A DNA stretch of 17,168 nt from Sulfolobaceae archaeon (GTDB lineage: Archaea; Thermoproteota; Thermoprotei_A; Sulfolobales; Sulfolobaceae): NCBI GenBank assembly GCA_038893355.1, contig JAWARQ010000012.1, positions 1 through 17,168 on the forward strand, given 5' to 3'. Made by a program: the position numbers and the translations under genes. This document shows positions 1 through 16,097 of the stretch, piece after piece; the stretch's first letter is position 1; each line of letters starts with the position of its first letter. The notes under the pieces were generated by a model that saw nothing but the letters and a program-made list of their open reading frames with translations, had not been told where the DNA came from and did no database searches.

Positions 1-1241
1 AACAATCAACAATATTAGCAATGGGTCTAATCTCTTACATCCCGGGTGCCATAATATTAGGATATTTATCAGATTTAATAGGTAGGCGTAACATGTTAAT
101 TTATACAATCATACTAATTGCAATAGGCAGTGTAGGAATGGCGTTATCTGTAGATTATAATACGTTATTATTCTTTAGGATAATTGAAGGTGCTGGAATT
201 GGAGGGGATTTAGTAATTACTGCAGTTTATATTGTAGAATATGCACCTGCATTAAAGAGGGGCATATATATGAATTGGATCTATATTGCAGGCTGGATTG
301 CAGTAGGTGGGGGTGCAGCATTTACCGGGATATTAGTGCAATCATTGCCGACTATAGGTTGGAGAATAGCATTTGGAATAGCAGCTGCTTTGGCAATTGC
401 TGCAATTGTTTTAAGGATCAGTGCTCCAGAATCAATTAGGTTTTTGGTTAAAAACGGAAGAATGTTAGAGGCGGAAAGATTAACTCGACATATGGAGGAA
501 ATAGTAATAAGTAAGCTTAGCGTTCCAAAACTGCCAGAATATAAATCGTTATCTTATGAGCACGACCATAGAAATCCCTTTAGAATAGTAATTAAGAGAT
601 TCTATTTAAAACGGTTCATTGGTCTATTAATATTTTGGTTTACAATCTATATGGTTCAATACACATTTTCAGGGTTTTGGGGTGGTTATCTACAGTTATT
701 AGGGATAACTGGAGACTTATTCAACAGAGTCTCGATACTTACTGCATACTCCGCAGTAGGTGCTACAATGATGGCGTTCTTGATGTTACTATTTATTGAT
801 AAGGTAGATAGGAGACTATTAATTCAAATTGGATCATTAGGTTGGTTAATAGGGGTATCACTATCTGCAGTAGCTGTAGTGCAGCAAAATTGGGCGCTGA
901 TGTTCCTACTGCAACTCCTGGTATCTAACTTCTTAGGCGGTGGTCTCTCTTATTTAGCTGGATACTTAATTTCAGCTGAAAGCTTTCCCACATCAGCTAG
1001 AGCTACTGGATTTGCATTAACTGATGGATTAGGGCACTTAGGAGGGGGTGTAGGCGCATTGTTAATTGTACCATTAATAAAATCATTAGGTTCAATATTA
1101 CCTTGGGTAATTATCAGTTTTCCAGTAGTTATAGGTGCTGGTTTATTATGGGTATTACTTCCAAGAACTGTAGGGTATAGGCTAGAGGAAATAAATGAGG
1201 TAATGGAAAGAGAAGTAATGTTGAAGTCTAAAATAAGATAA
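1..1241 (+). CDS. MFS transporter (sugar porter / aromatic acid:H+ symporter-like), probably 5'-truncated by the window edge
   Basis: MFS motifs GYLSDLIGRR, FRIIEGAGIGG, EYAPALKRG, PESIRFL and ESFPTSARATG, with many hydrophobic segments. The frame is open upstream of ATG 21 (QSTILA) and the first helix appears to be missing, so the true start is likely before position 1. Confidence 0.9.
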   Translation, partial: QSTILAMGLISYIPGAIILGYLSDLIGRRNMLIYTIILIAIGSVGMALSVDYNTLLFFRIIEGAGIGGDLVITAVYIVEYAPALKRGIYMNWIYIAGWIAVGGGAAFTGILVQSLPTIGWRIAFGIAAALAIAAIVLRISAPESIRFLVKNGRMLEAERLTRHMEEIVISKLSVPKLPEYKSLSYEHDHRNPFRIVIKRFYLKRFIGLLIFWFTIYMVQYTFSGFWGGYLQLLGITGDLFNRVSILTAYSAVGATMMAFLMLLFIDKVDRRLLIQIGSLGWLIGVSLSAVAVVQQNWALMFLLQLLVSNFLGGGLSYLAGYLISAESFPTSARATGFALTDGLGHLGGGVGALLIVPLIKSLGSILPWVIISFPVVIGAGLLWVLLPRTVGYRLEEINEVMEREVMLKSKIR

Positions 1242-1692
1242 GAAAACATTCTTATCTTTTTCTCCTTACCATAATTCTCTTATCAAATTAGCTTAAATTC
1301 ACCTATTGTTAACTATTTCATTCTGCTCAAAGATATTCTATTTATAATAATTTCTATATTTATAAAATTAATTTAAATTATTTTTTATCTTAAAAATTAT
1401 GATAGTTATTGAATAGATATTTTTCATTTAATTCCCTAATTTTGCATTATTTTAGTTAGCGAGATGTCTTTTTTAAATGTTTTTAAAGTAACGTAAAAAC
1501 ATAAAGGATTCTCCGATAAGCTCTAATTTATAGATCTAAGAGTTATGGTTGGATTATCGTAAATTATGGTTTTTATTTATGACAATTCATCTTGAACTCT
1601 TATTGAATTTGGAAATAAGGTGTGTATAAAAGAAAATAGAAGACGATTTATAGTCAATATATATATAGAGTGTAAAATTTATAAAAAATAAA

Positions 1693-2748
1693 TTATGATA
1701 TCTTCATCACAGCACGACCAAGATACTTAGCTTTCTCTAGCTCTTCAAACAAAGTGTTAATTTCACTTTCACTAAATCCTATTACCCTACTTACATGAGA
1801 CTTAACTCTGCCATCAACTGCTAACGAGAACAAGTCCTCAAATTCATTAGTTACTCCGACTATTGATGGTATTACCTTAATAAACCCTAGAATTGAAGCT
1901 AGTGGAGTTATAGGTATTGGTCCTTCATTTTCTGCTGGAATTCCTACTACTATTAAAGCCCCAGGTGGTCTTAATAACCTTAAGCCTAGTTCATAACCCT
2001 TTATCCTAGGAGTGAAGACTAATGATGCATAAACACCGCCTAACCTTTCTTTTACGAATTTTTCGGCTTCTCCCGCATCTACTACGTAATCTGCACCTAG
2101 CTTTTCAACAAATCTTAATCTTTCTTGCCCTATATCAATTCCTACAACTCTGTAGCCAAAAGCCTTAGCTATTTGAACTGCATAATGCCCTAAACCACCA
2201 GCAGCACCTATTATAGCTACAGTCTTACCTGCAGGCAGTCTTACTTCAGTAATAAGTTTTCTTACAGCACCATAAGCCGTTATTCCTCCACACATCATTG
2301 GTGCTACTTCAGTATCTGGTAGGTCTTTAGGTATCCTCGGTGCTGCCATTTCATGAATAATAGCATATTCCGCATACGTTCCATCTACGTTAACTGATGT
2401 ATATTTTGCATTAGAGCACCAGTGCGGATATCCTAATAGACATAGTTCACACTGACCGCACCAATAATTCATCCATGGTACACCAACTCTGTCACCTTTT
2501 CTAAGTCTAGAAACTCCAGGGCCGACTTCTTCAACTATTCCAATCCCTTCGTGACCTAATACCTTAGTATTTGTTAGATCCATAACTTGCCTTACACTAC
2601 TCCAATCTCCTTTCCACTGGTGTAAATCCGTATGACATATTCCAGTAACGCTTAATCTTACTAGAACTTGCCCAAAACCTGGTGTAGGTTTAGGAACCTC
2701 CTCCTTCACTAACGGTTTACCATACTCTTTTATCCTTAATGCCTTCAT
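1693..2748 (-). CDS. Zn-dependent alcohol dehydrogenase (MDR, AdhP-like), NAD(H)-type
   Basis: Catalytic Zn ligands in GICHTD, GHEG and MMCGG. Structural Zn site CGQCELC...C. Rossmann GAAGGLG followed by GIDIG (Asp implies NAD). Confidence 0.93.
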   Translation of the reverse strand: MKALRIKEYGKPLVKEEVPKPTPGFGQVLVRLSVTGICHTDLHQWKGDWSSVRQVMDLTNTKVLGHEGIGIVEEVGPGVSRLRKGDRVGVPWMNYWCGQCELCLLGYPHWCSNAKYTSVNVDGTYAEYAIIHEMAAPRIPKDLPDTEVAPMMCGGITAYGAVRKLITEVRLPAGKTVAIIGAAGGLGHYAVQIAKAFGYRVVGIDIGQERLRFVEKLGADYVVDAGEAEKFVKERLGGVYASLVFTPRIKGYELGLRLLRPPGALIVVGIPAENEGPIPITPLASILGFIKVIPSIVGVTNEFEDLFSLAVDGRVKSHVSRVIGFSESEINTLFEELEKAKYLGRAVMKIS

Positions 2749-2770
2749 TATAATATTTTTAGGTTATATA

Positions 2771-2784
2771 TTTAAAAAGCTTTC
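2771..2784 (-). promoter_or_regulatory. BRE-TATA of the leaderless adh gene
   Basis: The minus strand reads GAAAGC-TTTTTAAA, ending about 23 nt before ATG 2748. Confidence 0.6.
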
Positions 2785-3005
2785 TAACGATTAATTAATA
2801 GATGTATACACAAAAATATTACAAAGATATATATTATAAAGGTAATATTAAATAGTTTTTATCATTATAGTTTAGATCAAGCATTTTATTTACTTTCTAA
2901 CATTTAGGTTAACTTTATAAAATGTACAAAACGAAACATCGAATAAATAATTGTTGAAAAGATTTTCAATATTATAATACAGTTTATCCATAGAATAGAT
3001 TATTA

Positions 3006-4439
3006 CTAAATAAACAACTCTTTATATTTTTCTGTAATAGTTTTAACTAGCTCATCACTAGGTTTAACTTCGATTGGGAATTGATTTCTGATAAGTTTAT
3101 CAAAAGGTTTTACAGCGTATATAATTGCACGCGATGATACATACTCGCTTATAAATTCTCTCCTTTCTGCCATTGGATCTAATGGTGTACTCCATACGTT
3201 TTTTATTACTTCTATAGATCTTATTGGATCAGATCTAGTACACATTGCCCATATAACTTGATTTATATCTGTTGGATCTATGTCATCATCAACTATAATA
3301 ACATATCTACCACCATATGCACTTAATGGACTTGTTGCTACGATGTGTCCTACCGTAGTTGCATGGCCTGCTGAAATTTGTTTTATAGATACAATTATAA
3401 ATGCCCTACCAAATCCTGCTTCATGAACCCATACTCCTTTAATTCCAGGGATTCCAATTCTCTCTAACATATTCCAAATCATTGCGGCACGAATAGGGCA
3501 TCTAAAGTAAGAATAGTCATAAGGCGGAATGCTAGGTGCTGTTCCTAAAAGAATTGGATTTTCTCTATAATATACTCTTTCAACTTCAATAATAGGGCTT
3601 TTCATCTTACCTCCTGCATAATAACCCATAAATTCACCGAAAGGTCCTTCATCTATTGTTTCTCCAGTAATATATCCTTCAATCGCAATTTCACTTTCAG
3701 CTGGGATAGGTAAGTCTGTGAGTTCTCCCTTAATTACTTTAAATCTCTTTTTAATTACAGCACCTGCAAAATTATATTCAGATACTCCATAGGGTACTTC
3801 CATTCCTGCAAATATGAAAAGTGAAAGGGGTGGTCCAAATGATATGGCTATCGGTGCTTTAATTCCCTTTTTAAGATAATTCTCTATATGAATTCTACCA
3901 TGATGTCCTGCATCTATGAATATTGCTAACCTTCTTCTATCTACTAGCATTACTCTATAAGCTCCAACGTTTATCCAATCTGAATCTGGATCTTTAGTAA
4001 TTACAGCATCCGCAGTTCCAATATATCTTCCACCATCTAACTCATGCCACTTCGGTGCTGGGAATTTAAGAAGATTTACATTCTCACCCCTATCAACATT
4101 CTCCATTACTGGAGAATCGTTAACTATTATAGGATCGTAATTCTTATATTCTCTACTTGCATAGTCTAATCTCTGCTTTAAAATTTTGACTAATTGAATG
4201 TCATTGACTTTATCAGGAATCTCTAACGCGAGCCCAACTCTTATTGCATCTAACAATGCGCCAGTTAGTAGTCTATATCCTTTTGGATAATCCTTTATCT
4301 CATCAAATAATAATGTATATTTCTTCTTTTTAGCATTTAAATCGGTTATTGCACCAATCTCTAAGTTCCAATCAGCTCCTCTAATTTCCCTTAAAAGACC
4401 TAACTTCCTAACCTCTTCAATAAATTTTCTAATTTCCAT
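3006..4439 (-). CDS. UbiD-family (prFMN-dependent) (hetero)aromatic acid decarboxylase
   Basis: Motifs ADWNLEIGAI, DGGRYIGT, NVGAYR (catalytic Arg), EGPFGEFMGYY (catalytic Glu pair) and VDDDIDP..WA..TR..P. Length 477 aa. Confidence 0.93.
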   Translation of the reverse strand: MEIRKFIEEVRKLGLLREIRGADWNLEIGAITDLNAKKKKYTLLFDEIKDYPKGYRLLTGALLDAIRVGLALEIPDKVNDIQLVKILKQRLDYASREYKNYDPIIVNDSPVMENVDRGENVNLLKFPAPKWHELDGGRYIGTADAVITKDPDSDWINVGAYRVMLVDRRRLAIFIDAGHHGRIHIENYLKKGIKAPIAISFGPPLSLFIFAGMEVPYGVSEYNFAGAVIKKRFKVIKGELTDLPIPAESEIAIEGYITGETIDEGPFGEFMGYYAGGKMKSPIIEVERVYYRENPILLGTAPSIPPYDYSYFRCPIRAAMIWNMLERIGIPGIKGVWVHEAGFGRAFIIVSIKQISAGHATTVGHIVATSPLSAYGGRYVIIVDDDIDPTDINQVIWAMCTRSDPIRSIEVIKNVWSTPLDPMAERREFISEYVSSRAIIYAVKPFDKLIRNQFPIEVKPSDELVKTITEKYKELFI

Positions 4440-4528
4440 GGCTTATAATTTTTTAAATCCAGTTATTAGAGCTTAACTATGTAATATTATTCACTCATCA
4501 AATTATATTCGTATGATAAAATATTTTA

Positions 4529-5068
4529 TTAAATTGGAAAATAAAGGTTATATGAGGGATAGTTAGGGGTGTCCAAGTATATAATCCTTTTATATAGTTT
4601 CATTTCGTTACCACCGCTATAGATTCGTATGACATCTTCCCTCTTCCCAGATATTAAGTTAAAAGTTCCTTTTATCATTTCATCACCTTCTATTCTAAGT
4701 AGTATAAAACTGCTATTTACATGAATTTCTGAACCTCTCCTTTCTATTATTCTTACATTTCCAATAATTCTTCTAGTAAATGTCTTAGCATAATTGTACG
4801 CCCAACCATATTCAGATTTTAATCTTTGTATATATAGTCTCCACTTGTTTTTATCTGCACTAAATAAAAATTTTTCTTTGGAAAAATTTAATTTTTTATT
4901 TTGAGTAATTTCTCCTACAATGACGAAATACTCAAAATTATCATCTAGCAACTCTAGCCATTTTTCATAGTCTTCTTCATTTAATAACTCAACCTCTTTA
5001 TATACGAAGTTTAATATCTTAAAATACAACTCAACCTCTTCCTTTAATTCACTGTTCACTACTCTCAC
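4529..5068 (-). CDS. Aromatic ring-hydroxylating dioxygenase beta (small) subunit
   Basis: Pattern FVYKEVELL...YEKWLELL, TRRIIGNV, V.SSF...R, SGKREDVIR and L.KRIIYLD. It starts 3 nt after the alpha-subunit stop. An alternative GTG start lies at 5059 behind a GGTGA. Confidence 0.9.
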   Translation of the reverse strand: MRVVNSELKEEVELYFKILNFVYKEVELLNEEDYEKWLELLDDNFEYFVIVGEITQNKKLNFSKEKFLFSADKNKWRLYIQRLKSEYGWAYNYAKTFTRRIIGNVRIIERRGSEIHVNSSFILLRIEGDEMIKGTFNLISGKREDVIRIYSGGNEMKLYKRIIYLDTPNYPSYNLYFPI

Positions 5069-5071
5069 CCC

Positions 5072-6397
5072 TTAGTGTATCATTTCCATAACCCATCTTT
5101 TCCAAAAAGTCCTTTGACATTCTTCATGAAATTGAGTTGGTCTTACTATTCCAGGGCCTTTCCAATCTTTAATAACTGGCAAATCTTTTCCGCCTCCCTT
5201 CAATGCTGTAAAGGCAAAGTTTGCAAAATATCCTCCAGCAACCTTCGTTATACCCCTCCATATAGCTGTATCATCCATCTCTGCAGCCCCAGAAGGTCCG
5301 AAATGGGATACAGTAATCTCATAGACTCTTTTTGCAGTTTCATTATCTACTTCTTTTGGAACTATAACCCATGTCCATACTTCAGTCCTATTTTCACTTA
5401 TAGGTTGCCAGACCCGTAATAATGAAACTGGTGCTCTAGGTTTTACTGGGCCTGGATAATCAGTAGAATCTGCGGCTATGAACCCTGAAAAATTAGGAAA
5501 GATTGTAAAGACTGTATGCGAAACTTTCCTTAAAATTTCAAATCTCTCATCATAATTATTTTCAATATTCTTTAGTTTAAAACCAAAATAACCAGGAATA
5601 TTTTCACTAGGTACTAGTCTAAATCCGAAAGCACCTACTGGTTTGCCATTAACATCTTTTAAATCAGCTATTGAAATCTCATTCTTTCCTGGCGTTAAAT
5701 ACCCGAACCTAGATAATGGGCTTGCAAGACCATATTCTACTACACTCTTATGAGTCATAATAGTGTGCAATCTGTCTTCAGAGAAATTCTCTGCACCTAT
5801 TTTCCAATTAAAATCTGCAATAAATCTTAATGGTGAGTTTACTGGCCTCATTCCACCAGTTAATTTAAATATTACATCAAGATAGTACTTTGCTTCACCT
5901 AAATATTCGTCTAAAGAGATAGAAGGAGCTTCGCTACCGAATATTAAATTTTCATATTGCTGGATTTTTATCTCTATTAATCCCCATTTTTCAATATCAA
6001 GATCCTTGAAGACAATTTCACGCAATGGCATTCCTATCAATTTACCCACATTATTATACGTCCATCCGTGATATGGACATGTAAAAGTTTTTGCATTACC
6101 TTTTTCAGCGTTACATAATATTGCTCCTCTATGTCTACAACTGTTAAAGAAACCTCTTATTTTTCCGTCATCTCCCCTCACAATAATAAATGGGTCTGGG
6201 CCAATATATCTAACGATATAGTCTCCTTCCCTTGGAATTTCATCAGAAAATCCTAAGAATATCCAAGATTTTGAAAAGATTCTTTCAAGTTCAAGGTTAA
6301 ATATCTCCGTATCATTAATCACCTTCAAAGGAATTTCATAGTTCTCATCAATAAAAAATGACTTATACAAACTTTCCAAATGTTTTCTGATACTCAT
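5072..6397 (-). CDS. Rieske non-heme iron ring-hydroxylating oxygenase alpha subunit
   Basis: Rieske ligands CRHRG...CPYHGW. Mononuclear Fe site NWKIGAENFSEDRLHTIMTH (bridging Asp plus two His) and GPSGAAEMDD (Asp ligand). Also ELERIF..SW and TIFPNFS. Confidence 0.95.
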   Translation of the reverse strand: MSIRKHLESLYKSFFIDENYEIPLKVINDTEIFNLELERIFSKSWIFLGFSDEIPREGDYIVRYIGPDPFIIVRGDDGKIRGFFNSCRHRGAILCNAEKGNAKTFTCPYHGWTYNNVGKLIGMPLREIVFKDLDIEKWGLIEIKIQQYENLIFGSEAPSISLDEYLGEAKYYLDVIFKLTGGMRPVNSPLRFIADFNWKIGAENFSEDRLHTIMTHKSVVEYGLASPLSRFGYLTPGKNEISIADLKDVNGKPVGAFGFRLVPSENIPGYFGFKLKNIENNYDERFEILRKVSHTVFTIFPNFSGFIAADSTDYPGPVKPRAPVSLLRVWQPISENRTEVWTWVIVPKEVDNETAKRVYEITVSHFGPSGAAEMDDTAIWRGITKVAGGYFANFAFTALKGGGKDLPVIKDWKGPGIVRPTQFHEECQRTFWKRWVMEMIH

Positions 6398-6427
6398 TAC
6401 AATCTCTTTAAAATCTCTTAATATTAG

Positions 6428-6441
6428 TATTTAAGTTTTTC
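6428..6441 (-). promoter_or_regulatory. Putative BRE-TATA for the oxygenase alpha/beta genes
   Basis: The minus strand reads GAAAAA-CTTAAATA, about 31 nt before ATG 6397. Confidence 0.4.
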
Positions 6442-6506
6442 TATCATTATTATTTTAATAAATCAAATTAATTCTATATTATATTTATATGCATTATAAT
6501 ATTTGC

Positions 6507-7601
6507 TTAAGGTTTTATTAAACTCCGTAAGATCTCTCCCTTTTTCAAATTCTCTATCGCTTGATTTATATCCTCTAACTTATACTTACTAGATATTAAT
6601 TTAGCGGGATCATATCTCTTAGACCTTACCATTGCAAATAATTTTGGCATATCTATCCTAGGTCTTCCACCATGTGCGGTTAATATTCTTATTCCATTCC
6701 TTAAAAGGTGTGCTATCTTTAAGGGTATTTCTTGATTAGCAGGAGGAATTCCAACCTGAATTACTTTACCTCCTATTCTTACTAATTCTGTTGCCATTCT
6801 AATAGTTTCTAATGTACCAGCAACTTCAAATACAATATCTACTCCTCCATCACTAATTTCTTTAACCCTTTCTATAGTATTCCCTTCCTTAGCATTTATA
6901 ATATGAGTCGCACCTAATTCTAATGCCTTTTTTAATTTCCAATTATAGATGTCTATAACTATAATCTCCCCCGCCCCTATTGCCGATAACATCTGGACTA
7001 TCGATAAGCCTACTCCTCCAGCACCAATAACTGCTGTACTCTCTCCTGCTTTAACTTTAGCAGTATTCACTACTGCACCATACGCAGTTAATCCAGCACA
7101 ACCTAATATTGCTAGTTCTTCATTCGGATTAAGGTCGTTAGGGATTTTATTAACTGCATTTTCATGGACTATAACATATTCAGCAAATCCTCCTCCCATA
7201 AACATTCTTAACTCTCTCCCATCCCTGAATCTTAATCTACTTGTACCATCTAACATAACGCCCTTTAATCTATTCTTTATAAAATTCTCACATAAGTTCT
7301 CGAGTCCTGCTATGCAATTTCTACATTTTCCACATGGTTGAATGAATGAGACAACTACTATATCACCTTCCCTAACTCTAGAAACGTTTTTACCTACCTT
7401 AATTACTTCTCCTAATATTTCATGTCCTGCAATAACTGGTGGTTCTATTGGTGTAAATCCTAAAAATACGTTAAGATCGGAATGACATAGACCACAAGCT
7501 TTTACTTTTATCATAACTTCATTTTCTTTAGGATTTTCTATATCTATATCATCACGTATCTCTAAAGGCTGATTATATCTAAATAGTACTGCAGCCCTAA
7601 T
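6507..7601 (-). CDS. Zn-dependent dehydrogenase (MDR), paralog of the Sulfolobales succinate-semialdehyde reductase type; probable start ATT at 7601
   Basis: Motifs GLCHSD, AGHE, CGKCRNC...C, LGCAG and GAGGVG. The frame upstream of ATG 7514 reads [29 protein letters not shown], the normal MDR N-terminus, and is bounded by an in-frame TGA at 7608-7610. Confidence 0.9.
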
Positions 7602-7603
7602 AC

Positions 7604-8938
7604 CTATTCACCCATTAGAGCCTTTTCTTTACTTATTGCACCTTTGGTCTCTGGAGACAGTAAAGTTCCTATAAGTTCAATTATTCCAGCTACTATAATC
7701 GCTACTGTCATTACTAATGGAAATTTTGGGAAACCGCCAACAGCATTAAGTATTAAGGTAACTATTGTTGGTGATGAACCTCCTATTGCAAATCCAATAT
7801 TCCATGTAAGTGCTACACCAGTACCTCTTACTTGTGTTGGATATGTTTCATTTAGATACGTCATTACAATCCCACCTCCAAAATCTGCAATGAATGATAT
7901 TGTGAAGGCTAATAGTATTATTAGATTTAGCTCATTTATCGTTAAACCTCCTAAGATTAAAAATAGTGGACTCATAATTATTACTATAATGCTACCTATT
8001 AATGACATGGTTTTCCTACCTATTAGCTGTGAGAGAGCACCACCTATAACTGGGCCTATCAGCATGCCTAAGGATGCAAATATCATCACTATTCCAACTG
8101 ATGGTCTAGGCAAACTATTCACGTTGCTTAAAAATGTAGGAAAAAGCCCTTGAGTTAAATAATACATCAATGCCCATCCTACCGTAACGATTAGAGCAAT
8201 GAAGAATTTCCTTCTCAATTCAATATTTTTAAATATTTCTCTCAATGGCGATTTTACTAACTGCCCTCTTTGTTTAACCTTAGACCATACTTCAGATTCT
8301 GGCGTTATATAACTAACATAAAACAGAATTATCAAAGGAAATAAACCACTAAAGAACATAACTCTCCACCCTAAATCTAAGTAAGAATTTCCTGGGAACC
8401 AAATTGTAGTAGCGTAAAACCATAATGATGCAATAAGATAAGCAGCACCTGCAGCTGCAAATCCTATACCTCCTACCCAACCTCTATGTCTTTCTGGCAC
8501 AGATTCTGGCCCTATAGTATGACTTCCAGCGGTCACTCCTCCTATAAAGAAGCCTTGAATTAATCTAAGCAATATCAGTAATGTGGGTGCTAATATTCCT
8601 GCAGTATAGAAAGTCGGAAGTGCACCTTGTAGTGATGTAGTTATAACCAATCCAATTATACCATATATTATAGCCCTCTTTCTACCAACTTTATCAGCAA
8701 TCTTTGTACCAAAATAACCGGCACCGAATGGTCTCATTATGAACGATACGAGGAAGCCTGCATATGTTGCAGCTATTGATAATAGGGGAACTTGTGATGG
8801 GAAAAAGAGGGATGAAATGTAGGGTGTAACTAGAAGTATTATGAATAAATCGTATAGGTCAAAGGTCCATGTAAAGAAACTCGCTAATATCCATTTTACA
8901 TGCCTTGATGTTAGCTTATCTTCGCTCAATATACTCAC
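7604..8938 (-). CDS. MFS transporter (metabolite:H+ symporter-like)
   Basis: Motifs WTFDLYD, MRPFGA..FG..ADKVGRK, LRLIQGFFIGG, ESVPERHRG, GWRVMF and ETYPTQVRGTG. GTG start. Confidence 0.92.
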   Translation of the reverse strand: MSILSEDKLTSRHVKWILASFFTWTFDLYDLFIILLVTPYISSLFFPSQVPLLSIAATYAGFLVSFIMRPFGAGYFGTKIADKVGRKRAIIYGIIGLVITTSLQGALPTFYTAGILAPTLLILLRLIQGFFIGGVTAGSHTIGPESVPERHRGWVGGIGFAAAGAAYLIASLWFYATTIWFPGNSYLDLGWRVMFFSGLFPLIILFYVSYITPESEVWSKVKQRGQLVKSPLREIFKNIELRRKFFIALIVTVGWALMYYLTQGLFPTFLSNVNSLPRPSVGIVMIFASLGMLIGPVIGGALSQLIGRKTMSLIGSIIVIIMSPLFLILGGLTINELNLIILLAFTISFIADFGGGIVMTYLNETYPTQVRGTGVALTWNIGFAIGGSSPTIVTLILNAVGGFPKFPLVMTVAIIVAGIIELIGTLLSPETKGAISKEKALMGE

Positions 8939-8954
8939 CGTAGTTGATTTAAAG

Positions 8955-8980
8955 TTGTAACTTAATAAATGTTACTACAA
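8955..8980 (-). promoter_or_regulatory. TATA box of the MFS-dehydrogenase operon, flanked by an inverted repeat (candidate operator)
   Basis: Minus-strand TTTATTAA (8962-8969) lies about 24 nt before GTG 8938, enclosed by GTAAC-N9-GTTAC (8957-8975). Confidence 0.55.
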
Positions 8981-9105
8981 TTTAATAACTTCGGAGTATA
9001 TTAAATAACGTTTTAATTTTATTCTAGATATAAACTACATCAAATCAATTAGATTTTGTGGAAGGTATAATCCACTAAGAATTTGTTCTTATAAAGAACT
9101 AAAAT

Positions 9106-9753
9106 CTAGGAATTGTTTATTAGCTTTTTTATAAAATAACCTATTATCTTATTCTCAGCTCTCCTTAGGTGGTATATTAGTGTAGATTGTTTAATCCCTA
9201 TTATCTTTGCTAATTCTTCTGCCTTAATTCTTCTTGGATAATCAAAATATCCAAGGTCATACGCTAGACTTAGTATTTTTAATTCCCTATCACTAAGGTC
9301 GTTTATTGGGATTTCATCAGTAACATCGACTCTTTCTATTTGAGCGAATTCTTTTATTTCATTTAATAACTTATTCAATTTATATTCATAAGCCAATAAA
9401 TTCCAGATTTCCCCTCCATTAAACTTCATTGTATTCAAGACTATACCATTATTCCTTACTATAACGGACAGTATCGAATTATCGTAATCTCTAGCCAAAT
9501 CTACTATAATTTTATTTTTATAATTAAAAATATTATATATATTTTTTATTTTCTCTTCTGATTTAAGTTTTACTATAGTCCTATAACCTTTCTGGGAGAC
9601 AATGGCAGTAACCCTCAAAATGTTTTTCTCAGGATATGGAATTAAACCTATTATCTTCACTAAATCTTCCTCTAAATAATACTTACTCCAACAGTTTTCA
9701 TGAATTAGGTAAATATTTACCAACTTTATGGGACTTTTATTCACTCTTAGCAT
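9106..9753 (-). CDS. Transcription regulator with C-terminal bacterio-opsin-activator-type HTH (HTH_10)
   Basis: C-terminal LSDRELKILSLAYDLGYFDYPRRIKAEELAKIIGIKQSTLIYHLRRAENKI and N-terminal HENCWS, both typical of Sulfolobales members. Confidence 0.92.
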   Translation of the reverse strand: MLRVNKSPIKLVNIYLIHENCWSKYYLEEDLVKIIGLIPYPEKNILRVTAIVSQKGYRTIVKLKSEEKIKNIYNIFNYKNKIIVDLARDYDNSILSVIVRNNGIVLNTMKFNGGEIWNLLAYEYKLNKLLNEIKEFAQIERVDVTDEIPINDLSDRELKILSLAYDLGYFDYPRRIKAEELAKIIGIKQSTLIYHLRRAENKIIGYFIKKLINNS

Positions 9754-9902
9754 AGAATACTATAGAATTCGTAAAATAATAAATATTCATTACGAATAAT
9801 CACCTTAACATGATTAAAGCTTTCAAAAAGAGGTTTATCTTAATTTTAGTATATTTAAGGTGAGGAAAAAATATATAAACGTATATCGTGAAGATTAGCA
9901 TA
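9754..9902. promoter_or_regulatory. Divergent promoter region between the regulator and the acyl-CoA ligase
   Basis: Minus-strand TTTATTAT (9776-9783) lies about 23 nt before ATG 9753. Plus-strand GGAAAAAA-TATATAAA (TATA 9872-9879) lies about 24 nt before ATG 9903. Inverted pair TCACCTTAA (9800-9808) / TTAAGGTGA (9855-9863). Confidence 0.65.
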
Positions 9903-11591
9903 ATGGTAGAGGTAATAAGAGAGAAGAAGATAGTAGTAGAACCTAATTTAAAGAATTATGAAGAGGTACGAAGAAATTTTGATTGGAATATTGTGAGAAA
10001 GAGCCTAAATTATTTTGGGAAAGTTAATGCTGCAGAAGTTGCAATTCATAAAAAGGATTTAACGACTGCCAGTAAATATGGGTTAATATGGATTAGCGAA
10101 AAGGGTGAGATAAGGAAATATACTTTTTCAGATCTGGAAAAGAAAGGTTCTATATTTAGTAATGTTCTCAAGGAGGCTGGAATTGGCTCAGGGGATAGAG
10201 TTGTATTAATGTCTAAAAGGGTTCCAGCACTTTATTTTAGTTTATTAGGAATAGCTATGGCTGGTGGTGTAATAGTACCGATCTTTTCCACGTTTGGTGA
10301 GGATGCGATAAGGTATAGGGTCGAGAATAGTGGTGCGAGATTTGCAATAGTTCATGAGTCATTAGCTAATAAGTTCAAAAATATTAGTGGAATTAAATTA
10401 CTTAAAATCTCTGATGAGGGTATTCAAAATGAAAGTAGTGTAGCTAATATAAAATATGAGAAAAGGTCTATTGATGATCCATTTCTGATCCTCTATACAT
10501 CTGGTACTACAGGTAGACCTAAAGGTATATGGCATTCTCAAGATATATTAACTTTCTATTATATATCTGGAAAATACCACTTTGATATGCACCCTCAAGA
10601 TATATTCTGGCATACCGGTGATCCTGCATGGGTAGCAGGCTTTGCTGGAGTATGGACAGCGTGGATTAATGATATACCTATAGTATCTTATGAAGGAAGA
10701 TTTAATGCAGAGGCATGGTATTCGATAATTCAAGAAATTAAGGTCTCAATAATCTCTACTGCACCAACTGCATTAAGACTTCTTAAAAAAGAGGGCTTAC
10801 AGTTAGCTAGGAGATACGACTTATCATCCGTTAGATTTATTCATGCTGGAGGAGAGTATGTAGATCCAGATACAGTCAAATTTGGAATTGAATTATTTGG
10901 AATACCAGTACATGACGGGTATGGCCAGACAGAGACAGCTACTTACGTTATTGCTAACTTCATATCTATGCCAATTAAGGTTGGTTCGATGGGTAAACCA
11001 TTACCTGGAGTTGAGGCATTAATTGTTGACGAAAACGGAAACCCATTGCCACCAAACACTAGAGGAATCTTAGCATTTAAACCTGATTTTCCTGCAATGG
11101 CTAGGGGTATATGGGGAGATGAAGAAAGATGGAAGAGAAACTTTAAAAACGGATATTATTTAACTGGAGATTTTGCGTTTATGGACGAAGATGGGTATTT
11201 CTGGTATTTAGGTAGAGTCGATGATGTAATTAAAGTATCTGGATATAGAGTAAGTCCTATAGAAATAGAAAGTGTACTATCAACACATCCTGCAGTAGCG
11301 GAAGCCGCAGTTATTGGAGTAGAGGATCCAATTAGAGGGAACAAAATAAAAGCGTATATAGTTCTTAAGAAAGAATACGAACCTTCAGAGAGTGTTGTAA
11401 AGAGTATACAAGAATTTATAAAGGAAAAACTCGCTGCACATATGGTACCTAAAGAGATAGAGTTCGTTAATGAACTTCCTCATACGTTAAGTGGGAAAGT
11501 AATGAGGAGAGTTTTGAGGGCAATTGAGTCTAAAGCGGATGTGGGAGATATATCAACACTAGAAAACCCTGAAGTAGTAAAATCTAAATAA
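9903..11591 (+). CDS. AMP-forming acyl-CoA synthetase (AcsA-like scaffold, probably for a larger or heteroaromatic acid)
   Basis: Motifs YTSGTTGRPKG, DGYGQTET, YLTGD, GRVDDVIKVSGYR and LPHTLSGKVMRR. Start is placed at ATG 9903 rather than GTG 9888 because the TATA box position puts GTG 9888 upstream of the expected TSS. Confidence 0.92.
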   Translation: MVEVIREKKIVVEPNLKNYEEVRRNFDWNIVRKSLNYFGKVNAAEVAIHKKDLTTASKYGLIWISEKGEIRKYTFSDLEKKGSIFSNVLKEAGIGSGDRVVLMSKRVPALYFSLLGIAMAGGVIVPIFSTFGEDAIRYRVENSGARFAIVHESLANKFKNISGIKLLKISDEGIQNESSVANIKYEKRSIDDPFLILYTSGTTGRPKGIWHSQDILTFYYISGKYHFDMHPQDIFWHTGDPAWVAGFAGVWTAWINDIPIVSYEGRFNAEAWYSIIQEIKVSIISTAPTALRLLKKEGLQLARRYDLSSVRFIHAGGEYVDPDTVKFGIELFGIPVHDGYGQTETATYVIANFISMPIKVGSMGKPLPGVEALIVDENGNPLPPNTRGILAFKPDFPAMARGIWGDEERWKRNFKNGYYLTGDFAFMDEDGYFWYLGRVDDVIKVSGYRVSPIEIESVLSTHPAVAEAAVIGVEDPIRGNKIKAYIVLKKEYEPSESVVKSIQEFIKEKLAAHMVPKEIEFVNELPHTLSGKVMRRVLRAIESKADVGDISTLENPEVVKSK

Positions 11592-11614
11592 CATTATTAA
11601 TTTATTTTGTAAAC

Positions 11615-11667
11615 ATTTTAAAAGTCTTTTTAGCCTTTTATGCATTAGATTTTAAAAGTCTTTTTAG
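11615..11667 (+). repeat. Perfect 19-bp direct repeat ATTTTAAAAGTCTTTTTAG, two copies
   Basis: Copies at 11615-11633 and 11649-11667. The second TTTTAAAA lies about 26 nt before GTG 11683. Confidence 0.85.
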
Positions 11668-11682
11668 TAACTTCTTACTTGT

Positions 11683-12456
11683 GTGAGCATCATGATCAGA
11701 GTCGAAATAGATAAGGAGAATAAAATAGGAAAAATATTAATAGATAGACAAGAAAAGATGAATGCGATAACAGTATCTATGAGAAGAGAAATTGGAGAAA
11801 AATTAATTGAGTTTAATAAAAACCCTGATGTGAAAGTCGTGATAATTAAAGGAATAGGTGGAAAGGCATTCAGCTCTGGCGGAGATATAAGCGAATTCCT
11901 CTCTCTAACTCCAGATATTCTAATTGACTGGGGTGAAGATATTTCTATGTCAGAAAGAGTGTGGAAACCAGTAATAGCTGCAATTGATGGTTATGCCTTT
12001 GGTGCAGGATTTGAGCTTGCATTATCTTGTGATATCAGAATAGCAACTCCAAGAAGTGAATTTAGTTTCCCCGAAATAAGGTTAGGAATGGTTCCGGCAA
12101 GTGGCGGAATTACTAGGATAATAAAAACCTTAGGATTATCCAGAGCTACATATCTCTTAATGTTGGGGAAGAGAATAGATGCACAGACTGCATTACAATG
12201 GGGAATAGTGCATGAAGTAGTAGAACCAGAAAAATTAGATGAAAGGGCCTATGAAATAGCAAAAGAGCTCTCTAATCTATCATCGTTAGCATTAAAAGCA
12301 TTGAAGAAGATTCTTCACGAAATAGCTGATGCCCCCTTATATGTAGGGTTTGATATTGAGAGAAAAACCTTCGGCTTACTTAGATACTCTAATGATTTTA
12401 AGGAGGGTGTAGAAGCATTTCTAAATAAACGTAAACCAAAATTTGATGGGAGGTGA
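11683..12456 (+). CDS. Enoyl-CoA hydratase/isomerase (crotonase) family protein, HmfE (2-oxoglutaroyl-CoA hydrolase)-like
   Basis: FSSGGDI oxyanion loop, KPVIAAIDGYAFGAGFELALSCDIR, PEIRLG and DFKEGVEAFLNKRKPKF. HmfE likeness rests on recalled sequence and on adjacency to the Mo enzyme. Confidence 0.9.
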   Translation: MSIMIRVEIDKENKIGKILIDRQEKMNAITVSMRREIGEKLIEFNKNPDVKVVIIKGIGGKAFSSGGDISEFLSLTPDILIDWGEDISMSERVWKPVIAAIDGYAFGAGFELALSCDIRIATPRSEFSFPEIRLGMVPASGGITRIIKTLGLSRATYLLMLGKRIDAQTALQWGIVHEVVEPEKLDERAYEIAKELSNLSSLALKALKKILHEIADAPLYVGFDIERKTFGLLRYSNDFKEGVEAFLNKRKPKFDGR

Positions 12457-14750
12457 ATTTAATATTTAAAGAAGGTTTTAGGTTTGTATCTGGAAAAGGA
12501 AGATATATCGATGATGTAATTAGAGAATATAAGAATGTTCTTCATGCAAGTATAGTTAGATCTGCTTATGCTCATGCTAAAATAAATTCCATAGACGTAA
12601 GAGATGCGGAAAGATTGAGTGGAGTTATTAAAGTTTTAACGTTTAGAGACATAAAACCATTTTTAGATCCTTTTCCTCTTTCATTAGATATAAATTTAGA
12701 ATATTATCCTATAGCTAAGGATAAGGCAGTATATTATGGTGAACCAATAGCTGTAATCATTGCAAAAGATGAATATATAGCCGAAGATGCTAAGGAATTA
12801 GTTCAAATAGACTACGAACCTTTAAAACCGATAATCTCAATCAGAGACGCTATAAATTCTCCTCCAATACACTCAAATCTTTCATCGAATATAGTTTTGA
12901 ATAAAATACTTACCTATGGAAAATTCGAAGAGAGTATTAAAAAGGCCGAGGTAGTCACTGAAACGAGAGTTAAGTTTCCACGATACTCATGTGCTCCTCT
13001 AGAGACATATGAAGTTCTAGCGAAGTTTGATGGAGAAGAGTACGAGATATATTCAAATTTTCAAGGACCTTTTACTATTCATTACTTGTTAACTAAAGCA
13101 TTAAAAAGTAAAGTAGTTTTAAGAGGTCCACGCGATATAGGCGGGTCTTTTGGAATAAAGAGTGCAATCTACCCATACATGGCGTTAATAGCAGTTGCAA
13201 GTAGAATAGTAAATAAACCAGTAAAATGGATCGAAACAAGAAATGAGCATCTAATAGCTAGTTCTGCAGGTGCAGAAAGAGAGTCTTTAGTTAGAGTTTA
13301 CGGAAATAGGCAAGGTAAAATTTATGCCTTAGAGATTGAAATGACAGATAACCTTGGTGCTTATCCTAGACCTCCAGAGCCGGGTAACCTGCTAAGAAAT
13401 CATGGAAATATTACTGGTGCTTATGAAATAGAAGGACTAAAATTAAATTATAGGGCTGTACTAACAAATACTTTACCTACTGGGCTTAATAGAGGTTATG
13501 GTGGACCTCACTTATATCTTGCACTAGAAACTGCAATAGATGATTTTGCAGAAGAAGTAGGGATCGATCCATTAGAGGTAAGGTTTAAAAATGTGATAAA
13601 GGGAGAGGAATATGAGACATTAACTGGAGGTAAGTATCATGGTTTTAGTTGTTATAAAGTAGTTAAAGAAATGAAGGAAATTTATGAAAAATTAATTAAA
13701 GAATCAAAAAAATATAAAAATAGAGGAATTGGGGTTTCATTAATAGTAGAACCTTCTGGAACAAATATTGGTTACCTAGATTTGGCTCGAGTAAGCAAGA
13801 ATTTCTTACCTAAATCTTCTGCACTTGATGTGGTTTTGGTTCAAATAGATCCATATGCAAAAGTAAAAGTAATAATAAATGGAACTAATGAGGGTCAAGG
13901 CCATGAATCCGTAATTTCTAAAATTGTATCAGAGAGGCTAGGTATTAGTGAAGATGATGTAGAAGTTATTTACTCTGTAGATACAGTAAGGCCATGGAGT
14001 ATAACTTCTGGAACGTATTCTAGTAGATTTTCCCCAATAATAGTTAAAGCATTAAATAACGCGTTAGATAAGCTTGAGGACACTTTACTTACTTACGCAT
14101 CAGAGCTACTTAAGGTTCAGAAATCACAGTTAAAGATTGAAAATGGCAAGATACTGAAAGTTGGTAGTGATAAATCAATATCTATAAAGAATTTAGTAGG
14201 TATCTTCTATTGGGATCCTGCAAAGCTGAAGGGTATAGAGGACGGATTAACTGCAATAGGCTATTATCAATCACCCTACGCGGATGATCTAGAAGAGAAT
14301 AGAATAAATTCATCTATAGCATATGGCTGTCTTGGTCATATAGTTGAATTAGAGTTAGACGAAGAGACAAAAATTCCTAGAATACTTAATTACTTCATTA
14401 TCCACGATTCAGGGAAGATATTAAACGAAGAATTAGCTAAAGGTCAATTATTAGGTTCAACGTTTCATGGAATCGAAGTAGCCCTCTATGCTTCATTAGA
14501 GTATAATGATGAAGGGATTCCAATTTCACAGACCTTTTCAGAGTATGGTATATTATCTACGATGGAAAGTCCAAGAAGTATAAGTATAGTTCATATAGTA
14601 ACTGATCCGAATTATATAGCTGGATTAGGAGAAGGAGGTACAATGGCTGCACCAGCAGCTATAGTTAATGCTATTAAAAGGATATTAGGGGTGAAAGAAG
14701 TTAAGATACCAGTATACAATTTTATAAATGAGTTGTATAAATTGTATTAG
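12453..14750 (+). CDS. Xanthine-oxidase-family molybdoenzyme large subunit, HmfA (2-furoyl-CoA dehydrogenase)-like
   Basis: Motifs GKGRYIDD, VRSAYAHAKI, IGGSFGIK, PTGLNRGYGGP, GQGH, SGTYSSRF and GLGEGG (catalytic Glu). GTGA overlap with the upstream stop. Confidence 0.92.
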   Translation: MNLIFKEGFRFVSGKGRYIDDVIREYKNVLHASIVRSAYAHAKINSIDVRDAERLSGVIKVLTFRDIKPFLDPFPLSLDINLEYYPIAKDKAVYYGEPIAVIIAKDEYIAEDAKELVQIDYEPLKPIISIRDAINSPPIHSNLSSNIVLNKILTYGKFEESIKKAEVVTETRVKFPRYSCAPLETYEVLAKFDGEEYEIYSNFQGPFTIHYLLTKALKSKVVLRGPRDIGGSFGIKSAIYPYMALIAVASRIVNKPVKWIETRNEHLIASSAGAERESLVRVYGNRQGKIYALEIEMTDNLGAYPRPPEPGNLLRNHGNITGAYEIEGLKLNYRAVLTNTLPTGLNRGYGGPHLYLALETAIDDFAEEVGIDPLEVRFKNVIKGEEYETLTGGKYHGFSCYKVVKEMKEIYEKLIKESKKYKNRGIGVSLIVEPSGTNIGYLDLARVSKNFLPKSSALDVVLVQIDPYAKVKVIINGTNEGQGHESVISKIVSERLGISEDDVEVIYSVDTVRPWSITSGTYSSRFSPIIVKALNNALDKLEDTLLTYASELLKVQKSQLKIENGKILKVGSDKSISIKNLVGIFYWDPAKLKGIEDGLTAIGYYQSPYADDLEENRINSSIAYGCLGHIVELELDEETKIPRILNYFIIHDSGKILNEELAKGQLLGSTFHGIEVALYASLEYNDEGIPISQTFSEYGILSTMESPRSISIVHIVTDPNYIAGLGEGGTMAAPAAIVNAIKRILGVKEVKIPVYNFINELYKLY

Positions 14751-15099: not shown

Positions 15100-15405
15100 G
15101 GGTGGAAAACCTCGCCTTTTTGAGGAGAAATTAATAGCCCCTTATATTTGCATACTCTTTTTTGAAACATTTTTCAGCGATTTTAGCGACGTTCCTCTTC
15201 AGCTCGATGGAACTTTGGGAGGGGCACCTATAGTCTCTTAAGGGGCTAGACGTTATGGATGAAAGTCACTCTCCTTTCAGGTGGGAGTGGTTCTCTGCCC
15301 TACTCGACTGCCCACTAAATGAGAGATGCAAACCCGAATCGATGGTGGGAACGATGAACTCTCTGGGAGGGAACTTTTACCTCTATGAGGTGGTGAGCAA
15401 GTCAG
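15100..15405 (+). mobile_element. Degenerate non-autonomous IS200/IS605-family remnant(s), including a tnpB 3'/right end
   Basis: GC-richer patch in AT-rich DNA. AAAACCTCGCCTTTTTGAGG resembles a decayed subterminal hairpin, and there is a hairpin CACTCTCC-TTTCA-GGTGGGAGTG. GGTTCTCTGCCC..CGACTGCCC..AAATGAGAGATG.AAACCCGAATCGATG...GAGCAAGTCAG resembles recalled Sulfolobales tnpB ends finishing GAGGAAGTCAG. The left boundary is uncertain. Confidence 0.65.
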
Positions 15406-15425
15406 TTTTTATTGCTCCCTTATTT
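15282..15425 (+). ncRNA. Possible orphan omegaRNA (reRNA) scaffold plus flanking guide
   Basis: Inferred only from resemblance to tnpB right-end sequence. There is no expression evidence and the terminal hairpin is degenerate. Confidence 0.3.
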
Positions 15426-15745
15426 ATTAAATTCTTATCGTCACTTACCAGTGGAATATTATATTTTCTGCTCAAAAATAAATAAGTAGCATCATAATAA
15501 GTTAAATTTTCATTAACTGCAATCTCTAATACTTCCTTGGATAATTTCACATTTTCTACCTTAATGAACTTTAAGATGTTTGAAAAGTCAGACAGTAAGT
15601 CAGTCCTTTTAATCTTCCAAAGAAAATTTCCGATCTCGTAATATACTAAATCAGCAGTTATACACTCTTTAAAAAGGTCTATTGATCTATCTTTCAGTCT
15701 TTGAATTAAATTGATAATCGCTGACGTATCTAAAACATACTTCAC
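15383..15745 (-). CDS. vapC: PIN-domain toxin VapC
   Basis: PIN acidic motifs YVLDTSA, YEIGN, LTYYDATY and LVSDD. GTGA overlap with the antitoxin stop. Confidence 0.93.
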   Translation of the reverse strand: MKYVLDTSAIINLIQRLKDRSIDLFKECITADLVYYEIGNFLWKIKRTDLLSDFSNILKFIKVENVKLSKEVLEIAVNENLTYYDATYLFLSRKYNIPLVSDDKNLINKGAIKTDLLTTS

Positions 15746-16007: not shown

Positions 16008-16097
16008 CGTTTAGCATAAAGGCTATTCAATATGCACTGAATTCTTTTTTTACGTTAATAGAAATCTTTTTATATTCATTTATTATCAACTAAATTT

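Follow-up and report, generated by a model that had tools for sequence, protein, structure and literature searches.

Gene content and assembly of the locus

The 17,168-nucleotide contig JAWARQ010000012.1 of a Sulfolobaceae archaeon (assembly GCA_038893355.1) was analysed over its full length; this 17-kb stretch, which is the whole of contig C12 of the genome bin, is referred to as the window. Eleven gene-sized open reading frames (ORFs) fill positions 1-14750, among them genes for a UbiD-family decarboxylase, a Rieske oxygenase, an acyl-coenzyme A (CoA) ligase, a crotonase and a molybdenum (Mo) large subunit. An earlier note on the sequence had read all eleven as one island, an archaeal counterpart of the bacterial hmf clusters for furan acids that was extended with a Rieske oxygenase. 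We found that six of the genes form a conserved core, and we tentatively favour the view, at slightly less than even confidence, that this core represents an archaeal relative, with rewired parts, of the bacterial 2-furoate (hmf lower) pathway. Each of the eleven genes carries the Pfam family that the note had named for it. Together with the divergent promoter they are arranged as follows.

3..1241 (ORF called 21-1241), plus strand: MFS1, major facilitator superfamily (MFS) transporter, aromatic acid/H+ symporter type (Sugar_tr 4e-35); accessory
1693..2748, minus strand: ADH1, Zn-dependent alcohol dehydrogenase (Zn-ADH), AdhP type; accessory
3006..4439, minus strand: UbiD-family (de)carboxylase dependent on prenylated flavin mononucleotide (prFMN); core
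4529..5068, minus strand: Rieske ring-hydroxylating oxygenase, beta subunit (Ring_hydroxyl_B 1e-16); accessory
5072..6397, minus strand: Rieske ring-hydroxylating oxygenase, alpha (catalytic) subunit; accessory
6507..7514, minus strand: ADH2, Zn-ADH, class III type; travels with the Rieske pair
7604..8938, minus strand: MFS2, metabolite/H+ symporter (TIGR00883 211 bits, below cutoff); core
9106..9753, minus strand: HTH_10 transcription regulator; core
9754..9902: divergent promoter region between HTH_10 and CoA ligase
9888..11591, plus strand: acyl-CoA ligase, AMP-forming, acetyl-CoA-synthetase/medium-chain type; core
11683..12456, plus strand: crotonase, HmfE type; core
12453..14750, plus strand: Mo large subunit (molybdopterin-binding, xanthine-oxidase family, HmfA type); core

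The genes had been described as grouped around one divergent promoter, which does not hold for the set: HTH_10 and the CoA ligase are the only divergent pair in the window, MFS1 and ADH1 are convergent, and the other six minus-strand genes are spaced 3 to 257 bases. Nor are all genes intact, as had been claimed. The MFS1 frame is open to base 3 and its Pfam matches begin late, at profile positions 42 and 60 (Sugar_tr at 60), so that its N-terminus is lost to the contig end; its match to TIGR00895 (135 bits) is below the cutoff of that model. MFS2 is the probable importer of the acid. For the CoA ligase, GTG at 9888 and ATG at 9903 are candidate starts, and ATG 9903 is more likely.

The bin comprises 17 contigs and 1.40 Mb at a completeness of 83.8%. 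The composition of the window fits this bin: its GC content is 34.1% compared to 31-36% in the other 16 contigs, which bears out the note's remark that the genes are AT-rich like the host, and its tetranucleotide correlation to the remaining bin is 0.990, compared to a median of 0.992 and a 5th percentile of 0.977 among 74 17-kb chunks taken from the other contigs. Hot-spring metagenomes of other studies contain near-identical DNA, and no RNA run is listed among the data sets that contain this stretch. From one such run (X2, an independent sample of another study), contigs with zero differences to the window span the junctions of UbiD with Rieske beta and alpha (4147-5198), of Rieske alpha with ADH2 (5207-7527), of MFS2 with HTH_10 (7872-9491) and of the crotonase with the Mo subunit (12151-13045). 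An assembly artefact can therefore be discounted for the gene order at these four junctions; the ADH2-MFS2 and HTH_10-ligase junctions were unbridged among the metagenome contigs listed.

A six-gene core is conserved in Sulfolobaceae

Forty relatives were searched, of which 24 belong to the family and 16 to other families of the order, and stretches fetched from seven genomes were analysed by tblastn and Pfam. A recurring layout emerged in which the genes for the Mo large subunit, the crotonase and the CoA ligase lie next to that for HTH_10 and to a group consisting of UbiD, a 344-amino-acid (aa) Zn-ADH and MFS2. The conserved core thus comprises HTH_10, the CoA ligase, the crotonase, the Mo large subunit, UbiD and MFS2. 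It is clustered in five of the 24 family genomes (G017, G006, G007, G019 and G009), which belong to three genera, and is complete in G017, G019 and G009. The core orthologues are 54-64% (HTH_10), 73-79% (CoA ligase) and 79-81% (crotonase) identical to the proteins of the window, with 71-76% for UbiD and 60-68% for MFS2 across the five genomes, and a Mo subunit orthologue (64-72%) is present at four of the five core loci. HTH_10 orthologues adjoin the CoA ligase in five genomes. Wherever both are present, the crotonase and Mo subunit genes directly adjoin or overlap each other, and in the window the Mo subunit gene begins within the end of the crotonase gene, overlapping its stop codon. Gene order and orientation vary between the genera.

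At two loci the Mo gene is affected. In G006 (L106, 2169-5644) an IS1-type transposase gene splits the Mo large subunit orthologue into parts of 560 aa and 225 aa, and this insertion is a natural knockout of the Mo gene in an otherwise intact cluster. In G007 no Mo gene follows the crotonase within the fetched stretch.

The distribution of the other genes is different. UbiD orthologues (56-76%) occur in six of the 24 family genomes, and the 16 genomes of other families yielded only distant UbiD paralogues, with at most 38% identity among the matches listed. The nearest UbiD homologues with source names, which put the organism in the Sulfolobaceae, come from Saccharolobus solfataricus (78%), Sulfurisphaera tokodaii (76%), Sulfolobus sp. 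A20 (73%) and S. acidocaldarius SUSAZ (71%). Rieske alpha orthologues (51-69%) were found in five of the 24 family genomes and in none of the 16 others. The Rieske pair adjoins the core only in G017, G019 and G009 (3/24). Rieske beta orthologues lie next to alpha in G017, G010 and G022, and in G019 a Ring_hydroxyl_B ORF follows alpha. A Zn-ADH is present in all five core clusters. ADH1 is 33-35% identical to this conserved 344-aa ADH; ADH1 and ADH2, at 28-35% overall, are non-orthologous to it. ADH2 shares 57% identity with an ADH adjoining the Rieske alpha/beta genes in G010 and 35-36% with the Zn-ADH encoded in the Bacillales hmf cluster. For MFS1, no orthologue of at least 40% identity was detected in the related loci.

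The window therefore combines the six-gene core with ADH1, MFS1 and a Rieske/ADH2 block that sits, as an insertion, between MFS2 and UbiD. The single eleven-gene island does not survive this comparison, as the Rieske pair is accessory, neither ADH1 nor ADH2 is orthologous to the conserved ADH and MFS1 lacks an orthologue; the synteny that had been suggested as a check was recovered for the six core genes in several Sulfolobaceae genera, for the Rieske pair in only three of the 24 family genomes, and not for ADH1, ADH2 and MFS1.

In G019 (L102, 14931-15881) and G007 (L107, 10866-11825), but not in the window, UbiD and the conserved ADH are separated by a gene of the putative cyclase family (PF04199).

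The Mo subunit, crotonase and MFS2 resemble hmf proteins

As stand-ins for the hmf cluster of Cupriavidus basilensis, we used loci of Dinoroseobacter shibae (pDSHI01), Geobacillus kaustophilus (pHTA426) and three Bacillales genomes (G125, G083 and G155). The Bacillales loci are genuine hmf clusters, because their UbiD scores 517 bits against 6h6v, the solved 2,5-furandicarboxylate (FDCA) decarboxylase HmfF. They run from an AraC-type regulator through XdhC, MobA, the Mo large subunit, CoxG, the flavin adenine dinucleotide (FAD) subunit and the iron-sulfur (FeS) subunit to an AMP-ligase, a crotonase, a TRAP transporter, UbiX, an aldehyde dehydrogenase, an Fe-ADH, UbiD, a Zn-ADH and a further aldehyde dehydrogenase. 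pHTA426 and pDSHI01 are annotated with an A-B-C-D-E arrangement and a UbiD decarboxylase gene nearby. A review lists D. shibae DFL12 among furfural degraders and reports 54% identity between its HmfA and the C. basilensis protein (PMC3223595). A UbiD on a Paracoccus plasmid was dropped as a benchmark, its neighbours being unrelated genes.

The Mo subunit of the window contains all three Pfam domains and is 39-41% identical to HmfA of the Bacillales and of G. kaustophilus and 35% identical to that of D. shibae over about 770 residues, compared to 28-34% for the paralogues of its own genome. In a bootstrapped tree of 32 rows, with which a quick tree of 42 rows agrees, the ingroup (100/100) is composed of a bacterial HmfA clade holding all anchors (98/98) and an archaeal clade (100/100). 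The latter divides into two groups, that of the window (100/100) and a second one of paralogues (100/100). The three own-genome paralogues, a second Bacillales Mo large subunit and the UbiD-linked Mo large subunits from metagenomes fall outside the ingroup. Taken together, these comparisons indicate that the Mo subunit is a relative of HmfA in a sister-clade position, and at most a putative orthologue in the strict sense.

Members of the second archaeal HmfA-like group were seen in L226 (G017) and L227 (G011), where they occur with a fused FAD/2Fe-2S subunit of 432-438 aa; the G017 locus additionally encodes an old-yellow-enzyme-like reductase and a ferredoxin reductase.

C. basilensis HmfA has 1015 aa (PMC8091172), HmfA-type proteins of the Bacillales about 805 aa and the archaeal protein of the window 765 aa. 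An argument against HmfA kinship from length (1015 vs 765 aa) was rejected, since a CoxG-like fusion accounts for the difference: the 983-aa HmfA of D. shibae (L228, 8968-11919) consists of a Mo large subunit with a CoxG-like domain fused to its C-terminus, and this domain shares 31% identity with the CoxG that G. kaustophilus encodes separately. CoxG is likewise a separate gene in the Bacillales and in the window's genome.

The crotonase is 44-47% identical to HmfE of the Bacillales and 38% to that of D. shibae, compared to 34-38% for its own paralogues, and the crotonase tree unites the window's clade with HmfE at 92/99. Its motifs GAGFELAL and FPEIRLG are readable and both catalytic glutamates are kept. 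MFS2 is 37% identical to the MFS gene product adjoining HmfF in G. kaustophilus, with its own paralogues at 32% or below. Automatic labels point in the same direction. Homologues of the Mo subunit (38-42%, one 54%) are labelled 2-furoyl-CoA dehydrogenase large subunit by JGI, NCBI gives the same furoyl-CoA dehydrogenase label to homologues from Aeribacillus composti and Neobacillus niacini, and the S. islandicus orthologue of the crotonase (81%) is labelled 2-oxoglutaroyl-CoA hydrolase by JGI. A Protein Atlas search with the Mo subunit gave nothing beyond generic xanthine-dehydrogenase clusters. A close relative of the Aeribacillus Mo protein was found in 8 of 151 sampled genomes of the order of G041.

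The CoA ligase and UbiD are of other types

The CoA ligase scores 596 bits against NF003313, below the cutoff of 729, and its best match in the Protein Data Bank (PDB) is B. subtilis AcsA (9g79, 458 bits). Acetyl-CoA synthetases carry the motif DTWWQTE, whose second tryptophan closes the acetate pocket; glycine stands there in medium-chain acyl-CoA synthetases. The window's ligase reads DGYGQTE, with glycine replacing the second tryptophan, and a substrate larger than acetate is therefore likely. It is an acetyl-CoA-synthetase type enzyme, with a pocket that appears opened, and not of the HmfD type.

UbiD has all three domains (UbiD_N, UbiD and UbiD_C) and readable YR and EGPFGEF motifs, and R162, E264 and E269 are invariant in a 19-sequence alignment. 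A UbiX that could supply prFMN is encoded on contig C5 (184 bits, above cutoff). The nearest solved relative of the window's UbiD is the phenazine-1-carboxylate decarboxylase PhdA of Mycobacterium fortuitum (7pda, 297 bits; PMC10850782), followed by the pyrrole-2-carboxylate decarboxylase HudA/PA0254 (7abn, 4ip2; 183 bits), both matching along the full length, whereas HmfF (6h6v) scores 119 bits. The prFMN motifs of these enzymes are kept. Unlike PhdA and HudA, the window's subfamily has an invariant PPYDYSYFRCP motif of its own, and at the specificity position occupied by N318 in HudA and H297 in HmfF the window's UbiD has a tyrosine, an alignment reading that is tentative. Homologues of 50-58% identity occur in Nitrososphaerota, Aigarchaeota, Thermoplasmatales, Acidobacteria and Thermodesulfobacteriota, and the named members listed bear only labels such as UbiD family decarboxylase or similarly generic ones. 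By sequence, the protein is a member of a widespread, generically annotated subfamily nearest PhdA and HudA. HudA is reported also to decarboxylate furan-2-carboxylate, and its authors state that the position in the UbiD tree does not fix substrate specificity (PMC7976604).

We then considered 78 metagenome loci with UbiD of this subfamily (L117-L194), 36 of which are at least 8 kb long. A Mo-hydroxylase FAD subunit lies near UbiD in 12 of the 36, compared to 3 of 75 Rieske-centred control loci; a Mo large subunit is near it in 11/36 and an FeS subunit in 9/36. The repeated link to Mo hydroxylases fits heteroaromatic acids as substrates without naming one. Three-subunit Mo hydroxylases directly beside UbiD were observed, for example, in L143, L156, L160, L165 and L166.

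Related UbiD genes were also seen on two bacterial replicons. A stretch of the Paraburkholderia caribensis MBA4 megaplasmid (NZ_CP012748, ~1.526-1.560 Mb; L115/L116), unannotated in the record, encodes a UbiD 42% identical to the window's, a LysR regulator, an AMP-ligase, XdhC, MFS transporters, a three-subunit Mo hydroxylase and CoxG, and further UbiX, a 553-aa UbiD, porins, an ABC transporter and an alpha/beta hydrolase. On plasmid 2 of Aromatoleum aromaticum EbN1 (L114, 8908-10422), the UbiD EBN1_RS22170 (40% identical) adjoins an ABC transporter and lies between two modules of UbiX and a 527-aa UbiD, one of which is followed by two CoA-transferase genes. An anaerobic phthalate route via phthaloyl-CoA decarboxylase was rejected for the window, as its UbiD is only 21% identical to the 527-aa EbN1 proteins.

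In the HTH_10 regulator, the N-terminal 150 residues gave no Pfam match. The promoter between its gene and the ligase gene contains the inverted repeat TTCGTAA-N15-TTACGAA (9768-9796), which occurs once in the window and in none of 200 shuffles and is a candidate operator. The repeat was not found in the orthologous loci, where promoter regions are unalignable across genera.

The Rieske module and putative partner subunits encoded elsewhere

The Rieske alpha subunit shows the motifs CRH...CPYH and D-x2-H-x4-H. Its best PDB match is NarA of the Rhodococcus naphthalene dioxygenase (2b1x, 295 bits), and the phthalate 3,4-dioxygenase 9jp5 scores 222 bits; both are alpha/beta terminal oxygenases that combine a Rieske cluster with a mononuclear iron, an architecture that the motifs and the beta subunit predict for the window's enzyme too. 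The match to actinobacterial dioxygenases is full-length, yet identity outside the family reaches at most 39% across ~186,000 species genomes, with the best hits in Actinomycetota. No Rieske ferredoxin or reductase gene is present in the cluster. Small Rieske proteins encoded on contigs C1 and C2 are candidate partners, and a PF14759-type reductase was not found in the 84%-complete bin.

The genome encodes four Mo large subunits, one on C12, two on C2 and one on C10, none with an adjoining FAD-subunit gene. On contig C4 (~145.3-147.7 kb; L113:7321-9651), genes for an FAD subunit, a 2Fe-2S subunit, a MobA-like protein and CoxG lie together; this FAD gene is the only PF00941 match of the genome, and no Mo large subunit adjoins the set. 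The C4 FAD/FeS pair thus probably serves all four Mo large subunits in trans.

Contig C10 (1-25300; L111, L112) was noted as a second aromatic-catabolism contig. It encodes a GntR/FCD regulator, an amidase, E1 alpha and beta, a LigA-like protein and LigB (extradiol ring cleavage), together with an RraA-type aldolase, an Amidohydro_2 protein, a Mo large subunit, two divergent Rieske alpha/beta pairs, an AMP-ligase and two MFS transporters. From this gene content, the organism seems to have a broad aromatic-degrading capacity.

Beyond the eleven genes, the window contains these further ORFs:

15383-15745: PIN-domain gene
15742-15966: ORF of 74 aa, overlapping the start of the PIN-domain gene
16197-16625: IS607-like resolvase gene

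The 74-aa ORF and the PIN-domain gene are probably a VapBC toxin-antitoxin pair. Across 16045-17168, depth and sequence variants rise in four metagenome runs, and the raised depth is consistent with a repeated mobile element that ends the contig.

Proposed pathway and alternative explanations

The leading candidates for the substrate of the core are 2-furoate and FDCA. In the pathway that we propose, MFS2 would import a small heteroaromatic carboxylic acid of this kind. If the acid is a dicarboxylate, UbiD would strip one carboxyl group with prFMN from the UbiX encoded on C5, and the CoA ligase with its enlarged pocket would turn the monocarboxylate into the CoA thioester. The HmfA-like Mo subunit would then hydroxylate the ring of the thioester, borrowing the FAD/2Fe-2S pair from C4 (with CoxG and MobA), and the HmfE-like crotonase would hydrate or hydrolyse the tautomerised product to yield 2-oxoglutaryl-CoA and ultimately 2-oxoglutarate. 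HTH_10 would govern the ligase operon from the divergent promoter, and furfuryl-type alcohols could enter by way of the ADHs. The Rieske oxygenase with ADH2, as well as ADH1 and MFS1, are lineage additions with a putative link to the core.

Like the window, hmf clusters hold the CoA ligase, Mo large subunit and crotonase genes side by side and include a UbiD decarboxylase, an MFS transporter, an ADH and a dedicated regulator. They differ in that FAD, FeS, CoxG, MobA and UbiX are encoded in the cluster, whereas in the window's genome they are encoded elsewhere; in the regulator, which is of the LysR or AraC type compared to HTH_10; in gene order (A-B-C-D-E compared to ligase-crotonase-Mo subunit); and in the use of HmfD and HmfF in place of a ligase of the acetyl-CoA-synthetase/medium-chain type and a UbiD near PhdA and HudA. 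Moreover, the window, unlike hmf clusters, has an inserted Rieske oxygenase and a Mo subunit from a duplicated archaeal sister clade. The counterpart relationship claimed earlier can thus be upheld for the Mo subunit with HmfA and the crotonase with HmfE, on the basis of the trees, and for MFS2 with the hmf transporter; it has to be withdrawn for the ligase with HmfD and for UbiD with HmfF, and HmfB, HmfC, HmfG and HmfH genes are lacking from the cluster. What remains would be a known pathway in rearranged form, and the automatic JGI labels already hint at the furoate link.

Several observations weigh against furoate catabolism by the core. Neither the window cluster nor the five core loci contain an FAD subunit, FeS subunit or UbiX gene, and no aldehyde dehydrogenase or HmfH-type oxidase is found among the annotated ORFs of the window and the related loci. 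The ligase is only 27-29% identical to HmfD of four benchmarks, below its own-genome paralogues (30-36%), and UbiD, at 28-31% identity to the benchmark HmfFs, is of a non-HmfF type. Near the subfamily UbiD of the metagenome loci, a CoA ligase occurs in only 2/36 and a crotonase in 0/78 loci, and the Mo large subunits adjoining it belong to another type than HmfA. The crotonase tree has only 15 rows, and the HmfA, HmfD, HmfE and HmfF compared are those of the stand-ins for C. basilensis. The Mo subunit is sister to bacterial HmfA rather than nested within it, and at 35-41% identity the substrate can differ. As the archaeal sister clade is itself duplicated, the same substrate as for HmfA cannot be assumed, and its members may use a different CoA ester. 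The second archaeal group also adjoins a crotonase, itself distant (32-34%), at both loci examined, in G017 together with a thiolase and an acyl-CoA dehydrogenase. The pairing of Mo subunit and crotonase would accordingly be a hallmark of the whole HmfA superclade, which fits CoA-thioester substrates, and we read the window's group as the one that retained the HmfE-type crotonase partner.

These points leave room for a core that degrades another heteroaromatic carboxylate via its CoA ester, such as thiophene-2-carboxylate, pyrrole-2-carboxylate or an N-heteroaromatic acid, with UbiD trimming a dicarboxylate or related acid. This appears possible, if rather unlikely. It would agree with the sister position of the Mo subunit outside the HmfA clade and with the proximity of UbiD to PhdA and HudA, the latter with furan, indole and thiophene acids as side substrates. 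The subfamily's frequent neighbourhood to three-subunit Mo hydroxylases, in metagenomes and on the P. caribensis megaplasmid, would suit it as well. Thiophene-2-carbonyl-CoA is hydroxylated by a Mo enzyme. Nevertheless, in a comparison set drawn from hmf rather than thiophene or pyrrole pathways, the only Mo-crotonase relatives with functional support are those of hmf clusters, and MFS2 resembles an hmf-cluster transporter.

A pathway devoid of aromatic rings can be drawn from the same genes, in which a Zn-ADH and a Mo aldehyde oxidoreductase convert an alcohol via the aldehyde to a short or medium-chain, possibly unsaturated acid, the ligase activates this acid, the crotonase hydrates the enoyl-CoA and UbiD acts on an acrylic-type acid. 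The type of the ligase and the Zn-ADH in all five related clusters would be in line with it. So would the crotonase, a canonical hydratase with both glutamates that counts the 3-hydroxypropionyl-CoA dehydratase of M. sedula among its best PDB matches. The top NCBIfam match of the Mo subunit is glyceraldehyde dehydrogenase alpha, although its 374 bits compare to a cutoff of 790. We consider this pathway quite improbable: the Mo subunit is far nearer to HmfA (535-560 bits in tblastn) than to any solved aldehyde oxidoreductase or to the S. tokodaii enzyme 4zoh (214 bits), its own-genome paralogues fall outside the HmfA ingroup, and the crotonase clusters with HmfE, apart from the other crotonases of the genome. 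A hydroxycinnamate route (Fcs, Ech and aldehyde oxidation) was likewise given low weight, since the crotonase is far from the hydratase-lyase type, with no hydroxycinnamoyl-CoA hydratase-lyase among its best 60 PDB matches, and the Mo subunit groups with HmfA. Very improbable, in our view, is the absence of any single pathway, that is, a mosaic of independent catabolic genes in a variable region flanked by insertion sequences (IS), whose likeness to hmf merely reflects recurring gene families. The variation of the Rieske pair, ADH1, ADH2 and MFS1 between genomes and of order and orientation between genera, the IS inside the Mo gene of G006, the fetched G007 stretch without this gene, the IS607-like gene with raised depth at the contig end and the lack of a conserved operator would all be expected of such a mosaic. 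However, the six genes have remained clustered in three genera in spite of rearrangement, translational coupling links the crotonase gene to that of the Mo subunit, and the pairing of the two recurs across the HmfA superclade in bacteria and archaea.

The relation of the core to the 2-furoate pathway, the reading we prefer, can be extended to a more detailed scenario. Here, thermoacidophilic Sulfolobaceae would catabolise furan acids by an independently assembled route that has only the Mo-crotonase pair in common with hmf, with a medium-chain-type ligase in place of HmfD and a non-orthologous UbiD, from the large subfamily that is linked to Mo hydroxylases in many uncultured lineages, decarboxylating FDCA or heteroaromatic acids, while one FAD/FeS module is common to four Mo subunits and the Rieske oxygenase widens the substrate range in some lineages. 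That all these parts hold jointly is unlikely. The formation of furans from sugars in hot acid, without any enzyme, would provide a plausible ecological rationale.

Significance

Full-text literature searches yielded no paper on an archaeal furan or furoate pathway, in agreement with the earlier statement that no characterised archaeal version is known. If our reading is true, the core would represent the first furan-acid catabolic route in Archaea, operating at low pH and high temperature, which is where sugars give rise to furfural and 5-hydroxymethylfurfural. If the prediction fails, the locus would be one more uncharacterised acyl-CoA catabolic cluster. As the orthologous cluster is present in genetically tractable cultured species, the prediction is directly testable; named orthologues come from Sulfolobus acidocaldarius, Saccharolobus solfataricus, Sulfurisphaera ohwakuensis and S. 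tokodaii. Should it hold, the cluster would provide heat-stable enzymes for furans and FDCA of biotechnological interest, it would allow the sharing of one FAD/FeS module among several Mo large subunits to be tested, and it would assign a function to the UbiD subfamily of Nitrososphaerota, Aigarchaeota, Thermoplasmatales and Acidobacteriota.

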